The notes under the pieces are model-generated. The model ran no database searches and was not told the DNA's origin. It saw nothing but the letters and a program-made list of their open reading frames with translations. Made by a program: the position numbers and the translations under genes. From a virus (Duplodnaviria; Caudoviricetes): a stretch of 34,553 nt of DNA. This document shows, piece after piece, positions 1 to 6,345 of the stretch (the stretch's first letter is position 1; each line of letters begins with the position of its first letter). The DNA lies in the IMG/VR virus record IMGVR_UViG_3300017766_002912, positions 1 to 34,553 of that record; one strand, given 5' to 3'.

Positions 1-7
1 CCGACCG

Positions 8-190
8 ATGACCTTCCCCGACCTGATCGCTGAAATCACCAATCCTGAGAACGGGACCATCTATTGGATTGAAGCGGCACACGCTGCCAGGCAGCACGGT
101 CTGTGGGATGACTTCCGCACCGACTACGGCACGACCTCTGCCTTCGGCGGGGTCGACGCTGGCGAATTCCTGGTGTGGTTGGGGTATTGA
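8..190 (+). CDS. Hypothetical early protein, 60 aa
   Basis: ATG in the CCGATG context shared with the next two genes, GC3-rich codons, and a stop overlapping the -35 box of the next promoter. Confidence 0.75.
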   Translation: MTFPDLIAEITNPENGTIYWIEAAHAARQHGLWDDFRTDYGTTSAFGGVDAGEFLVWLGY

Positions 191-217
191 CCCCTGCCCC
201 CTGACCCTGTAGAATTC
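181..217 (+). promoter_or_regulatory. Sigma70-type early promoter with hairpin over the -35 box
   Basis: TTGACC (187-192), 17-bp spacer, TAGAAT (210-215). Inverted repeat GGGGT/ACCCC (181-185/190-194). Confidence 0.85.
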
Positions 218-244
218 TCTCAGTTCACACCCCCACCTGAACCG

Positions 245-433
245 ATGACCGAAGCATACGCCATCTTCACCACGGGCAACGACTACTACGACCGCCCCGA
301 ACTGTTCGGACTCTACGCCTCCGCTGAGAAGGCAGAGGCAGAGGCAGCGGTGCTGCGAGAGCAGATGGACGACTTCAATACCGACGAACCCCTCTACGTT
401 GAAGTGAGCGTCGCCTACGTTCCGATCCGCTGA
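245..433 (+). CDS. Hypothetical acidic early protein, 62 aa
   Basis: ATG about 30 nt after the -10 box. The ORF fills the space between two promoter repeats. Confidence 0.8.
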   Translation: MTEAYAIFTTGNDYYDRPELFGLYASAEKAEAEAAVLREQMDDFNTDEPLYVEVSVAYVPIR

Positions 434-440
434 ACCCTAC

Positions 441-480
441 GGGGCGGGTTGACCATCCGCCCCCTGACCCTGTAGAATTC
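441..480 (+). promoter_or_regulatory. Sigma70-type early promoter with the -35 box in a stem-loop
   Basis: TTGACC (449-454), 18-bp spacer, TAGAAT (473-478). Stem GGGGCGG (441-447)/CCGCCCC (457-463) encloses the -35 box. Confidence 0.85.
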
Positions 481-502
481 CAAAGCAACCGCAACCGATC
501 CG

Positions 503-688
503 ATGGCAATCTACTCCGCCTGCTCGAACCTGGAAACCCGTGAGATCATGTGGGTTGCCCGCAAGACTGATGATGCCCCCCAGTTCCGCTTCGCTGGACA
601 GATCAACCCCTCTGAGGGTTGGTGGTTGGCGGGCATCTACTCCGATCGCTTCGCCTCCGACGTTCGTGGCATTCAGTGGGGTGAGTGA
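503..688 (+). CDS. Hypothetical early protein, 61 aa
   Basis: ATG in CCGATG context 24 nt after the -10 box. Ends just before the next hairpin/promoter. Confidence 0.78.
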   Translation: MAIYSACSNLETREIMWVARKTDDAPQFRFAGQINPSEGWWLAGIYSDRFASDVRGIQWGE

Positions 689-698
689 CCCCGTTCGT

Positions 699-731
699 GG
701 GGGTGGGCACCGCCTGCCCCCGTGCTACAAT
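699..731 (+). promoter_or_regulatory. Extended -10 promoter preceded by a GC hairpin
   Basis: TGcTACAAT (723-731). Hairpin GGGGGTGGGC/GCCTGCCCCC (699-721, with G-U pairs). The -35 box is poor. Confidence 0.7.
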
Positions 732-757
732 TCCATCGTTCACCACCACACCGCACA

Positions 758-1003
758 ATGGCAAAGGCAATCGGCAACGTTCGTTCCACCGACAGCAACG
801 GCAAAGGGCAGGCGCTTCGCTGCAGCAGCGGCGGCGGGATGACCTTCACCCGTGCCCGTGGGTTGGGCGCCTGTATGGTGGCAGACCTTGACGCCGCCAT
901 CGCTGCAGCAAAGGCACAGTATCGTGCCGACCGCATCGCCGCCGCCCGTGATCGACTGGCAGAGGGCAGCGTGATTCACTCTCACCTGGCAGTTCGTTTC
1001 TGA
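758..1003 (+). CDS. Hypothetical Ala/Gly/Arg-rich early protein, 81 aa (MAKAIGNVR...)
   Basis: Start moved from the track's 722 to ATG 758 because 722 overlaps the promoter. The C/A-rich leader resembles those of the upstream genes, and a terminator follows. Confidence 0.75.
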   Translation: MAKAIGNVRSTDSNGKGQALRCSSGGGMTFTRARGLGACMVADLDAAIAAAKAQYRADRIAAARDRLAEGSVIHSHLAVRF

Positions 1004-1009
1004 CACTGA

Positions 1010-1036
1010 GGGGGTGGCAATCGCCGCCCCTTTTTT
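1010..1036 (+). terminator. Rho-independent terminator
   Basis: Stem GGGGTGGC (1011-1018), loop AATC, GCCGCCCC (1023-1030), then T6. Confidence 0.9.
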
Positions 1037-1248
1037 ATGTCTACCGTGTGCCTTCGTTCGTGTTTGGCAGTGCCCGTATTATGCGGTGGTTTGTTATAGC
1101 GGGGCGTGTTTTAAAATCCAAAGGTACCCCTAAACTATAAAGTGTTACCCAAGCGAGAGAAATATTACACAAGACTCAAAAAAATTCCGGATATAAAAAA
1201 TACCTCAAAAAGGACGATTTGATATATAATAAAAAATATGTAGAAATT

Positions 1249-1425
1249 ATGAGAAAAAAACCCGATGACACTAAGATATTCCTTCAAGTTGATCCATTAA
1301 ATGGCGAGTATTATATCAGAATACCTGAGTGGATGATCAATGACCTTTCATGGTATGAAGACACTCAGATAAAGGTAACTTTAGATAACGACGAAATTAT
1401 ACTTTCAGAATATGAAGATGAGTGA
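1249..1425 (+). CDS. AbrB/MazE-like swapped-hairpin DNA-binding protein, ~58 aa
   Basis: GEYYIRIPEWMINDLSW...IKVTLDNDEIILSE fits the AbrB/MazE/SpoVT pattern. ATG 1249 is preferred over TTG 1219. Confidence 0.65.
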   Translation: MRKKPDDTKIFLQVDPLNGEYYIRIPEWMINDLSWYEDTQIKVTLDNDEIILSEYEDE

Positions 1426-1588
1426 AGAAAAATATGACATATATTTAAACGGCAAAAAGATATATGATAAGTTAGAAGAAGAGGAATTTAATAATACCTG
1501 GAAGATGATTCAAAATTTTCTGAGTATTACTGAATCGCCCGTATGTAGAGAAGATCTAACATATAGAAAATCGCAGATTGACATCTAA
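1418..1588 (+). CDS. Hypothetical protein, 56 aa (MSEEKYDIYLNGKKIYDKLEEEEF...), not in ORF track
   Basis: Open frame translated by hand. It overlaps the previous stop, fills the gap, and resembles 2389-2550. Confidence 0.8.
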   Translation: MSEEKYDIYLNGKKIYDKLEEEEFNNTWKMIQNFLSITESPVCREDLTYRKSQIDI

Positions 1589-1606
1589 TACATAATCAAG
1601 TATGAT
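1578..1606 (+). promoter_or_regulatory. Near-consensus sigma70 promoter for the glycosyltransferase cluster
   Basis: TTGACA (1578-1583), 17 bp, TATGAT (1601-1606), 22 nt upstream of ATG 1629. Confidence 0.85.
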
Positions 1607-1628
1607 ATTGACTTAAAACATTCAACTT

Positions 1629-2384
1629 ATGGCTAAAGGATTTACAGTAAAAGCAAAAACGCCGATCGCCACTCAGGAACAGGAGTGGGACTACGATAAG
1701 GCAAGAGAGATGGTAAGGGGAAAATCAATCGTATTTTGTCTACCTGGTAGAGGAGTCTCTTATACTTACTTAAAGAACTTTGTACAACTGTGCTTCGACT
1801 TGGTACAGTCTGGCGCCAGTATCCAAATTTCGCAAGATTATTCATCAATGGTTAATTTTGCAAGATGTAAATGTTTAGGAGCAAATGTTCTCAGAGGGCC
1901 AGATCAAATTCCCTGGGACGGAAAATTAAATTATGACTGGCAGCTCTGGATTGATTCTGATATTGTCTTTAACAGTGAGAAATTTTGGCAACTAGTTCTC
2001 ATGGAAAAAGATATCGCAGCGGGTTGGTATTGTACCGAAGATGGGGTCACCACCTCAGTCGCCCACTGGTTAGAGGAGGACGATTTCCGCAATAATGGTG
2101 GTGTGATGAATCACGAAACTCTGGAGAGTATTTCCAAGCGTCGTAAACCCTTCACAGTTGATTATACTGGATTCGGATGGCTTCTTATCAAGAACGGTGT
2201 CTTTGAGCATTCTGAAATGAAGTATCCTTGGTTCGCGCCCAAGATGCAAGTCTTTGAATCAGGTGAAGTTCAGGATATGTGTGGAGAAGATGTAAGTTTC
2301 TGCCTGGATGCAAAAGAGGCAGGATTTGAAATTTGGTGTGACCCTCGTATTAGAGTCGGTCACGAAAAGACAAGAATCATTTGA
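1629..2384 (+). CDS. GT-A fold (GT2-like) glycosyltransferase of T4-like cyanophages
   Basis: DxD motif WIDSDIVF, TGFGWLLIK, GEDVSFC and C-terminal VGHEK, all typical of GT2-like enzymes. Confidence 0.8.
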   Translation: MAKGFTVKAKTPIATQEQEWDYDKAREMVRGKSIVFCLPGRGVSYTYLKNFVQLCFDLVQSGASIQISQDYSSMVNFARCKCLGANVLRGPDQIPWDGKLNYDWQLWIDSDIVFNSEKFWQLVLMEKDIAAGWYCTEDGVTTSVAHWLEEDDFRNNGGVMNHETLESISKRRKPFTVDYTGFGWLLIKNGVFEHSEMKYPWFAPKMQVFESGEVQDMCGEDVSFCLDAKEAGFEIWCDPRIRVGHEKTRII

Positions 2385-4413: not shown

Positions 4414-6345
4414 ATGCCTTTTACTAAATTTACAAATCTAGATTTTGATCAGATAAAGACTTCAATAAAAGATTATCTTCGTGCAAATTCAAATTTCACG
4501 GATTTTGATTTTGAAGGATCAAACTTTTCTGTGCTCATAGACACATTAGCATATAATACGTATATTACAGCATTTAACTCTAATATGATAGTTAATGAAT
4601 CCTTTTTGGATTCTGCAACTTTAAGAGAAAATGTTGTTTCATTGGCCAGAAACGTCGGATATGTACCTCGGTCTAGAACATCCTCTAATGCTGAGGTATA
4701 TTTTACAGTATCGACAACAAGCACTAGTCCAACATTAACACTTCAGGCAGGTGTTGTATGTGTAGGATCAATAAATGAAACGACATATATTTTTTCAATA
4801 CCAGAAAATATAACTACAACAATAAATGATGGTGTTGCCCAATTTGGATCTGCAGATAGTCCTATTTTGATATACCAGGGCACACTGCTTTCTAAGCAAT
4901 TTACCGTAGATGGATCATTAGATCAGAGATTTATACTCGACAATTCATTTATTGATTCATCAACAATCTCAGTTTATGTTAGAGGAGCATTAGAAACTGG
5001 TGGTTTAGGAGAAAAATATACTAAAGTTGATAATATTTTAAACACTGGATCAATTTCTGAAATATATTTCATTCAAGAAGTTCAAGATGAGAAATATGAA
5101 TTACTATTCGGTGATGGATATTTCGGTAAAGAATTAGAAAATAATTCTGTAGTAAATGTAAGTTATATTGTTACTGACGGAAAATTAGGAAATGGATGCT
5201 CAGTATTCTCATTTGTAGGCACTTTTAAAGATTCTGAAGATAATACAGTCATTCCAACAGAATCAGTGTCTGTTAATACTATTACATCATCAAAAAATGG
5301 AGGAGATATTGAATCGTTATCTTCTATTAAATATTATGCTCCAAAACTATATTCTTCACAATATAGAGCGGTTACATCTAGTGATTATGAAGCAATTATA
5401 AAACAAATATATGCAAATGCAGAATCTGTTTCAATAGTTGGAGGTGAAGAGTTATCTCCACCAAGATATGGTAAAGTTTTAATTAGCATTAAACCTAAGA
5501 ATGGAGATTATGTTTCAGATTTTGATCAAGAACTTATACTCAATAGACTAAAGAATTACTCTGTTTCTGGAATAAATCAGGAAATTGTACCTCTTAAAGT
5601 TCTTTATGTTGAAATTGATACTTCTGTTTATTATAATATAAATCAAGTTGCTAGTGTCGATAATTTAAAAACTCTTATATACAATACATTATATCAATAT
5701 TCAAAAACTCCTAACATTAATAAATTTGGTGGTAGATTTAAATACAGTAAAGTAGTTCAACTGATTGATAATGTTGATGATTCTATTACTTCTAACATTA
5801 CTAAAGTTAGAATTAGAAGAAATTTAAAAGCACTTATAAATCAGTTTTCACAATATGAATTGTGTTTTGGAAATAAATTCCATATTAATCCATATGGATA
5901 CAACATTAAGAGCACTGGGTTTTATGTTGATGGAATTGATGCACCAGTTTATTTGACTGATGTTCCAAATAAATCTGCGGATAATATGTCCTTGGATGGA
6001 TCTGGAAAAGGATCTGTATCTATAGTCAAAAAGAATTCTGATGGCACTTATGGTGTTGTGGTAAAATCTGCTGGAATTGTTGATTACAATTCTGGAGAAA
6101 TTAATATTAATGGAATCGTTATAACTAGTACAATAAAGGAAAATAATATTGTAGAAGTGCAAGCTATTCCAGAATCTAACGATGTAATTGGGTTAAAGGA
6201 TTTATATTTAGAATTTAACCTTGAAAATAGTAAAATAAATATGAAGAGAGATGTAATTTCTTCAGGAGAAGACACTTCTGGAGTCAACTTCACTAATAAT
6301 TATTACACTTCAAGTTACTTTAATGGGGATATAGAGAGGAAATAA
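4414..6345 (+). CDS. gp6: Baseplate wedge subunit gp6
   Basis: LDFDQIK, DFDFEGS, LAYNT, ESFLDSATLRENVVSLA..GY.P, FGDG, RAVTSSDY. Confidence 0.95.
   Translation: MPFTKFTNLDFDQIKTSIKDYLRANSNFTDFDFEGSNFSVLIDTLAYNTYITAFNSNMIVNESFLDSATLRENVVSLARNVGYVPRSRTSSNAEVYFTVSTTSTSPTLTLQAGVVCVGSINETTYIFSIPENITTTINDGVAQFGSADSPILIYQGTLLSKQFTVDGSLDQRFILDNSFIDSSTISVYVRGALETGGLGEKYTKVDNILNTGSISEIYFIQEVQDEKYELLFGDGYFGKELENNSVVNVSYIVTDGKLGNGCSVFSFVGTFKDSEDNTVIPTESVSVNTITSSKNGGDIESLSSIKYYAPKLYSSQYRAVTSSDYEAIIKQIYANAESVSIVGGEELSPPRYGKVLISIKPKNGDYVSDFDQELILNRLKNYSVSGINQEIVPLKVLYVEIDTSVYYNINQVASVDNLKTLIYNTLYQYSKTPNINKFGGRFKYSKVVQLIDNVDDSITSNITKVRIRRNLKALINQFSQYELCFGNKFHINPYGYNIKSTGFYVDGIDAPVYLTDVPNKSADNMSLDGSGKGSVSIVKKNSDGTYGVVVKSAGIVDYNSGEININGIVITSTIKENNIVEVQAIPESNDVIGLKDLYLEFNLENSKINMKRDVISSGEDTSGVNFTNNYYTSSYFNGDIERK

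Follow-up and report, generated by a model that had tools for sequence, protein, structure and literature searches.

The stretch of DNA analysed here (the window: a single virus record, IMGVR_UViG_3300017766_002912, 34,553 bases) is a fragment of a T4-like cyanomyophage whose first 1630 bases contain no copy of the degenerate site RGCY, where R is a purine and Y a pyrimidine. The gap reflects locally what has happened across the family: marine and freshwater T4-like phages (Kyanoviridae) have purged RGCY by synonymous change, and the avoidance follows phage lineage, not host. The pressure behind it probably comes from an RGCY nuclease borne by the phages, either the avoiding phage's own or that of a co-infecting relative, which is met by avoidance of the site together with its modification. 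RGCY modification is already known from the literature; the literature searched (subscription papers and most supplements lay outside its coverage) describes neither the depletion nor its lineage pattern, nor the cassette of putative modifier genes set out below. Papers are cited by PMC number for the portions drawn on here.

An earlier note on this DNA, made from its letters alone, had reported the absence of RGCY, CCGG and CGCG from a GC-rich block at the start of the window and a milder loss of RGCY elsewhere. Recounting bears this out: all 32 GGC and all 13 AGC trinucleotides in 1-1110 are followed by a purine, the first CCGG lies at 1187, the first RGCY at 1631 and the first CGCG at 2234, whilst GATC, GAATTC and GTCGAC are tolerated in the block (60.7% GC). 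The note's ratio for gp6 (4414-6345) is also correct, at 14 RGCR to 2 RGCY. Observed and expected 4-mer counts were compared using 2000 dinucleotide shuffles of 1-1110, which give 0 RGCY against 20.6 expected (shuffle minimum 10); synonymous-codon shuffles give 0 against 17.8 in four open reading frames (ORFs) of the block and 48 against 107 in 19 downstream ORFs. Codon or dinucleotide bias, which the note had named as the explanation that would undo its claim, has practically no chance of accounting for this alone: alanine usage in the structural genes does lean to GCA, but RGCY is still short against dinucleotide, codon and codon-plus-context shuffles, and its shortage varies with the neighbouring codon.

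Relatives of the window were gathered with the 251-residue gene at 1629-2384 as bait, and the best 80 of 600 matches, which are interrelated, served as 80 related viral loci. In these, RGCY occurs 119 times against 1557 expected within GC-rich blocks (observed/expected, O/E, 0.08) and 754 times against 3902 outside them (O/E 0.19). When the window and 81 loci were analysed by 4-mer and frame (103 GC-rich and 262 AT-rich ORFs), the four RGCY words ranked as the rarest 4-mers of all in the AT-rich ORFs and took four of the bottom five places in the GC-rich ORFs. All three codon frames are depleted (O/E 0.09, 0.14 and 0.05 in GC-rich ORFs; 0.20, 0.16 and 0.25 in AT-rich ORFs), which indicates selection. 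In the GC-rich ORFs, 3.8% of the alanine codons that follow a purine are GCY, compared with 86.8% of those that follow a pyrimidine (10% and 49% in the AT-rich ORFs), whilst GCR codons after a purine exceed those after a pyrimidine by about 250 to 86. The depletion thus has the marks of restriction-site avoidance: it goes beyond dinucleotide and codon usage, affects all frames and both strands, and is accompanied by an enrichment of synonymous escapes. The selection against a degenerate site that the note had proposed is upheld by these data, and by the modification of RGCY reported in wild myoviruses (PMC8919816).

Sites could also erode without selection if the modified cytosine of RGCY deaminates. 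RGTY and RACY are in mild excess (1.04-1.17), and GpC is low (0.65-0.72) in carriers of the GpC modifier CmoX (see below), so decay occurs there. However, depletion is just as strong in the frame where either deamination product would alter the amino acid, and GCR codons are in large excess behind a purine, so that the pattern does not match mutation by itself; a C5 methylase (PF00145) was matched in none of the six avoider records searched, nor in the incomplete genomes G001-G004. Mutational decay is largely refuted by the frame and codon-neighbour data, and is a very improbable explanation.

The note had further held that the avoidance is strictest in the earliest-expressed, possibly first-injected DNA, which is true per opportunity and untrue per kb. 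RGCY makes up 0 of 94 NGCN in the block and 50 of 593 in the rest of the window (Fisher p=9e-4), and the block share is the lower one in 33 of 35 loci. In contrast, the residual density outside the block (1.5 per kb) predicts only 2.5 RGCY in 1-1630, and the 35 loci hold 1.23 RGCY per kb in blocks vs 1.11 outside (p=0.47); the lower absolute density that would be expected in a leading region injected first, as in T7 or T5, is not seen, and the suggestion of first-injected DNA gains no support. The zero in 1-1630 is therefore unremarkable per kb and remarkable per opportunity: the GC-rich block has twice the opportunities and is kept to the same RGCY density. T4-like genomes are usually circularly permuted.

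The absence of CCGG and CGCG from the block is likewise real (0 against 9.1 and 8.1 expected, shuffle minima 1 each). Over the 80 loci, the O/E of CCGG is 0.19 in GC-rich blocks and 0.86 outside, and that of CGCG 0.75 and 1.01; the two words vary between lineages and form a separate signal. At 1110-34553, codon shuffles give 3 CCGG against 24 expected, and TCGA, GTAC and CATG are also low; the low counts of these four words vary by lineage and look host-driven.

To compare phages, O/E was obtained per genome by codon shuffle, with four controls and eight phages of other hosts sampled in part. Values are low in S-SRM01 (0.10), P-HM1 (0.21), Syn9 (0.24), P-SSM2 (0.25, part), S-PM2 (0.29), G001 (0.35) and G002 (0.14), and also in T4-like phages of SAR11 (HTVC008M, 0.29) and OM43 (Melnitz, 0.43). 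In contrast, all seven unrelated phages of cyanobacteria or SAR11 are unaffected (0.98-1.14): the non-T4-like cyanophages P-SSP7 (1.09), Syn5 (1.14), P60 (1.10), P-SS2 (1.10, part), S-CBS2 (1.05) and S-TIM5 (1.05, part), and the SAR11 podovirus HTVC011P (0.98), recorded on the same host strain as HTVC008M. Eight large phages of other hosts lie at 0.66-1.34, with at most a loss of GGCC or AGCT. A host-driven trait would be common to unrelated phages of the same host; here it is confined to one phage lineage, and the absence of the purge from unrelated phages of the same host kinds suggests that the cutting enzyme is likely phage-carried. The host source of the pressure that the note had favoured is not supported by these values, nor by the ORFs of HTVC011P, where GGCC, CCGG, CGCG, GCGC, TCGA and GATC are all at zero and AGCT, GGCT and AGCC are at normal levels. 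Syn9 (L134-L142) shows a depletion of its own, with GAAC/GTTC and GTAC at 0.18-0.25, which suggests a GWAC-type target.

In PMC8919816, RGCY is modified in nine surface-water viral genomes, at 17-69%, of which two were assigned to Eurybiavirus and one to Bellamyvirus. For all seven of those typed as m4C the best match is a GGCC m4C methylase, as for neither of the two typed as m5C. The sole 'prokaryote' bin with RGCY is 224 kb long with 0% completeness, and the portions drawn on contain no credible RGCY-modified prokaryote genome among 233. One of the viral genomes, V1 (248 kb), has 644 RGCY motifs, by hand calculation about 0.17 of expectation if both strands were counted. The gene that matches GGCC m4C methylases in these viruses is very likely the cyanophage gene annotated 'dam', which lies between gp44 and gp62 in Syn9, P-HM1, G002 and S-PM2. 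Its product scores 78-82 bits against a Dam cut-off of 114.85, and among its best plasmid relatives are methylases that neighbour HaeIII-family nucleases (three of the top seven rows, one checked). Some Dam-like proteins act as GG(m4C)C methylases (PMC6105098), and an 'N6A-methylase' was counted in 14 of 16 cyanophage genomes (PMC3037559). The gp44-gp62 gene is labelled 'dam' in most of these genomes; on these sequence grounds, it is predicted to encode an RG(m4C)Y methylase. In the S-PM2 record (L107, 94098-94936) it is split in two frames, and a second, divergent D12 methylase lies at 1-888. G001 carries an N4/N6 methylase beside a ThaI-like nuclease (L087:1426-2899), a complete restriction-modification pair, and its ORFs hold no CCGG.

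The clamp-loader-side slot that holds 'dam' is swappable and contains one of three alternatives: 'dam', a DruA/Mom-like gene or CmoX. In the window's own genome the modifier locus lies beyond the end of the window. Three methylase families have no match in S-SRM01, whose slot encodes a 352-residue DruA-like protein (L121:14923-15978); the DruA-like gene of HTVC008M follows gp43. The DruA/Mom-like gene occurs in 31 cultured-phage records, one of which labels it 'methylcarbamoylase mom'; S-SM2 and S-SSM7 are further carriers. Among 160 loci gathered with the 'dam' and DruA-like genes, the two never occur together, and the RGCY share of NGCN is at most 0.089 in every one (neutral 0.25). The DruA/Mom-like gene may modify the same RGCY site as the 'dam' it replaces, and is a candidate for an undescribed DNA modification.

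The third alternative has a different outcome. S-CRM01, the one T4-like non-avoider (O/E 0.91), carries CmoA and CmoX in its clamp-loader region; its CmoX retains the key arginine and is 65% identical to that of S-B43, which modifies the cytosine of GC at about 75% of sites (PMC12783734). Eleven CmoA/CmoX loci (five of 16, L278-L282, were left out as having no CmoA and 23-34% identity) have a median RGCY share of 0.22, with nine of 11 above the maximum of the other 160; five of the 11 are one near-identical clade, so that they represent some six or seven lineages, fewer than the loci suggest. Most CmoX carriers relax RGCY avoidance, as would be expected of a self/non-self system under broad protection of the site: S-CRM01 stands at 0.91 and S-B43 at 0.47, with two exceptions. 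In S-B43, RGCY is still strongly depleted at 115-165 kb (L253-L256) and relaxed in the rest, possibly as a result of mosaicism or a recent gain of CmoX. Melnitz (L246:3001-5185) encodes a C5 methylase without the arginine of CmoX; the next gene resembles a 2OG-Fe dioxygenase by eye, and the pair is a possible methylcytosine oxidation pathway.

The CmoX carriers bear directly on the idea that modification is itself the cost, in which RGCY is marked for replication, repair or packaging and either the burden of the mark or host modification-dependent nucleases such as McrBC or BisI select against the sites. The modifier does lie within the replication module (gp44-gp62-regA), RGCY modification is partial, and a nuclease family found next to the modifier resembles methyl-directed enzymes. 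Yet phages modifying all GpC relax the avoidance where this idea would have them tighten it, and a modifier that invites cutting would have to be retained for some added benefit, none being in evidence; this explanation is improbable.

A phage-borne nuclease would account for the pattern as follows. The candidate enzyme would cut unmodified RGCY, presumed frequent in host DNA, and may serve in host-DNA degradation or the exclusion of rival phages, whilst phage-encoded modification of the RGCY cytosine likely shields the sites that remain. Because modification is partial, each site would carry a small risk, so that sites are kept sparse throughout, at about 1-1.5 per kb, without being lost altogether. 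This thinning would proceed through synonymous change (47 of the 48 coding RGCY in 1629-34553 could still be removed in this way), and a broad GpC modifier such as CmoX would remove the cost of RGCY sites. Cyanomyoviruses lack denA, ndd and denB (PMC2984593), and host DNA is degraded nonetheless, host restriction systems being uncommon (PMC6708340).

The trait resembles known phage restriction-site avoidance in that a short palindromic site is removed synonymously in all frames, but RGCY is degenerate, and its loss marks a whole family with hosts in three phyla, leaves some sites in place, does not extend to other phages of the same host kinds, and is relaxed alongside a broad GpC modifier. 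If a phage-borne nuclease is at work, the logic would be that of T4, where hydroxymethylcytosine marks the phage's own cytosines and endonucleases II and IV (denA, denB) cut unmarked DNA; unlike in T4, these two genes are missing from cyanomyoviruses (PMC2984593) and the RGCY mark is post-replicative, partial, site-specific and backed by site loss. The closest characterised relatives of phage 'dam' are M.Ssp6803II and M.AvaVII (DmtB) and the HaeIII-family systems, which share a Dam-like D12 fold acting on cytosine (PMC6105098), whereas the phage enzyme is predicted to act on RGCY, a broader site, and in most cases lacks a HaeIII partner. CmoA/CmoX/CmoY of S-B43 carboxymethylate the same cytosine in GpC, with orthologues in the clamp-loader region of S-CRM01 and in several viral contigs, but in non-avoiders, and the PMC12783734 Results make no link to RGCY. 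The modification in marine Myoviridae-like genomes concerns the same motif in the same kind of virus, although the portions of PMC8919816 drawn on assign no enzyme to RGCY and do not mention depletion. The chlorovirus CviJI system is a virus-encoded RGCY restriction-modification system with a C5 methylase. It is alike in its site and viral origin, but no C5 methylase was matched in the RGCY avoider records searched.

Candidate nuclease genes lie in 82 of the 160 modifier loci. A small PD-(D/E)XK-like gene sits directly upstream of the modifier in 26, with an invariant D and ExK; the nearest folds to its model (pLDDT 88.7) are restriction endonucleases (best E 1.2e-3, TM ~0.4). In 56 loci the directly upstream gene is F195, whose confident model (pLDDT 88.8) has no Foldseek match, only unnamed viral clusters in the Atlas, and weak VIA rows (Z <=3.9), among them the T5 SciA endonuclease on GCGC DNA (Z 3.2, rmsd 4.3, 99 aligned); the T5 preprint does not mention SciA. 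The candidate F178 has no match among cultured phages and no Pfam match. A SegE-type GIY-YIG gene (PF19835, labelled 'NAD synthetase'), near-core in cyanophages (566 records) and without a sequence match in the PDB, was rejected as sole cause: it is missing from the avoiders S-PM2 and HTVC008M, and eight carriers outside the family do not avoid RGCY (0.66-1.34). Within the family, carriers lie at 0.10-0.25 against 0.29 in those two non-carriers, with carriers S-B43 at 0.47 and Melnitz at 0.43, so a tie between RGCY loss and this gene, as a nuclease of T4 EndoII-like GIY-YIG type, is not borne out. Genes that every avoider has and S-CRM01 lacks comprise shadow ORFs in nrdA, 2OG oxygenases and DUF7201, with no nuclease among them; G001 lacks the gp45-gp61 region, and its absences were therefore not counted. 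The core genes of nine genomes presumably include gp4, a Cas4-like exonuclease, DUF6433, DUF7207 and DUF6267, and the pressure may come from a core gene or from nucleases that co-infecting relatives carry.

Several observations weigh against a phage-borne nuclease. None common to all avoiders was found among the genes compared across them; 68 of the 80 'dam' loci have no candidate nuclease beside the gene; of 10 Kyanoviridae genomes searched, whole or nearly so, one contains a candidate family (S-SRM01, with F195); and loci with a candidate do not have a lower RGCY share than those without. By fold, the PD-(D/E)XK-like family best matches enzymes bound to methylated DNA (Eco15I, NhoI, DpnI), so that, judging from the model, it may cut modified DNA instead. 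One of the few CmoX lineages is a clear exception, in that two of the 11 loci (L273 and L274) still avoid RGCY (share 0.04-0.05), and S-B43 is only partly and patchily relaxed. Viral genome V10 has a GGCC-type methylase and no detected motif (PMC8919816), and the host-side evidence consists of that published methylome table. The controls are also imperfect. S-TIM5 and S-CBS2 carry C5 methylases (the search covered the controls other than HTVC011P) and are thus not clean; S-TIM5 presumably methylates cytosines after purines. Podo- and siphoviruses are narrow in host range, and may be shielded by host methylation.

The main rival is a host defence met only by generalist phages: some cyanobacterial, SAR11 or OM43 strains would carry a CviJI-like RGCY nuclease, against which generalist T4-like phages avoid and methylate the site and which specialists escape. 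Host restriction does act on these phages, since each genome also purges host-type palindromes (CCGG, GCGC, CGCG and 6-mers); orphan phage methylases, such as those of the 68 'dam' loci, are classically anti-restriction; and resistance to generalist cyanophages is intracellular and unexplained (PMC6708340). This explanation is nevertheless unlikely, as HTVC011P keeps AGCT, GGCT and AGCC with six palindromes at zero, no credible prokaryote genome among the 233 has RGCY modification (PMC8919816), and the trait, about equally deep across three host phyla and in freshwater and marine settings, always leaves some sites, unlike host-driven loss.

A broader extension of the phage-borne nuclease is put forward tentatively, as it is rather less likely to be right than wrong: the ocean's most abundant T4-like phages may share an ancestral self/non-self system centred on the RGCY cytosine, in which a nuclease shreds host or rival DNA and a swappable clamp-loader-side cassette supplies one of three protecting chemistries, namely N4-methylation by a wrongly labelled 'dam', a modification not yet described that the Mom-like GNAT protein would make, or GpC carboxymethylation. 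If true, this would fill in how cyanomyophages degrade host DNA, and a new DNA base would be the product of the Mom-like gene. According to PMC2984593, it is open by what means T4-like cyanophages, which have neither the modified base nor the nucleases of T4, break down the DNA of their hosts. The idea is testable in cultured phages (Syn9, P-HM1, S-SM2 and S-SSM7 among them), since it comes with a target site, a candidate methylase, a candidate for a novel modification and, in S-CRM01 and S-B43, natural negative controls. The RGCY signature is also a cheap marker with which to assign fragments to the family and spot members with hypermodified DNA.

The features of the window are as follows.
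1-1110, no strand: GC-rich block of small genes, putative early region; 60.7% GC, no RGCY, CCGG or CGCG
8-190, plus strand: small ORF, no PHROG match
187-215, plus strand: sigma-70-like promoter match TTGACC-17-TAGAAT, a copy of a repeated element
245-433, plus strand: small ORF, DNA homologous to S-PM2 p241, no PHROG match
449-478, plus strand: sigma-70-like promoter match TTGACC-18-TAGAAT, copy two of the repeated element
503-688, plus strand: small ORF, no PHROG match
704-731, plus strand: sigma-70-like promoter match with extended -10, from the promoter scan
758-1003, plus strand: small ORF (ATG at 758 within the listed frame 722-1003), no PHROG match
1008-1033, plus strand: terminator-like hairpin at the end of the GC-rich block, from the hairpin scan
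1128-1199, no strand: conserved non-coding junction behind the block, with the first CCGG at 1187; 83-92% identity to S-SRM01, S-CAM1, S-CAM3, S-RIM32 and S-H9-2
1629-2384, plus strand: conserved 251-residue gene (phrog_1574, glycosyltransferase-like); the first RGCY (1631) spans its start codon
1629-34553, plus strand: AT-rich, mostly structural genes (gp25, gp6, gp7, gp8, gp13-gp16); 50 residual RGCY, O/E 0.45
4414-6345, plus strand: gp6 baseplate wedge gene, 14 RGCR to 2 RGCY

T4-like baseplate, neck and small-terminase genes occupy the window from 4011 onward, and for the gene at 1629 the identity with Synechococcus and Prochlorococcus myovirus genes is 85-91%, S-SRM01 giving the best match. 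A scan for phage-type speD gave four loci, none cyanobacterial; contigs with phage-type speD in Flavobacteriaceae (L082) and Methanobacteriota (L085) bins, at 68-74% identity, are probably misbinned phage DNA. The junction at 1128-1199 straddles a sharp GC-to-AT boundary and is possibly an origin or a packaging-related site. Positions 206-448 are 81% identical to the small-gene region of S-PM2; the anatomy of the block, read with PMC2984593, suggests that 1-1110 is an early region. Sigma-70-like promoter matches number five in 1-1700 vs 1.8 in shuffled sequence, and the element repeated around the -10 boxes at 203 and 466 (191-230 and 454-493), upstream of two block ORFs, is likely an early promoter motif.

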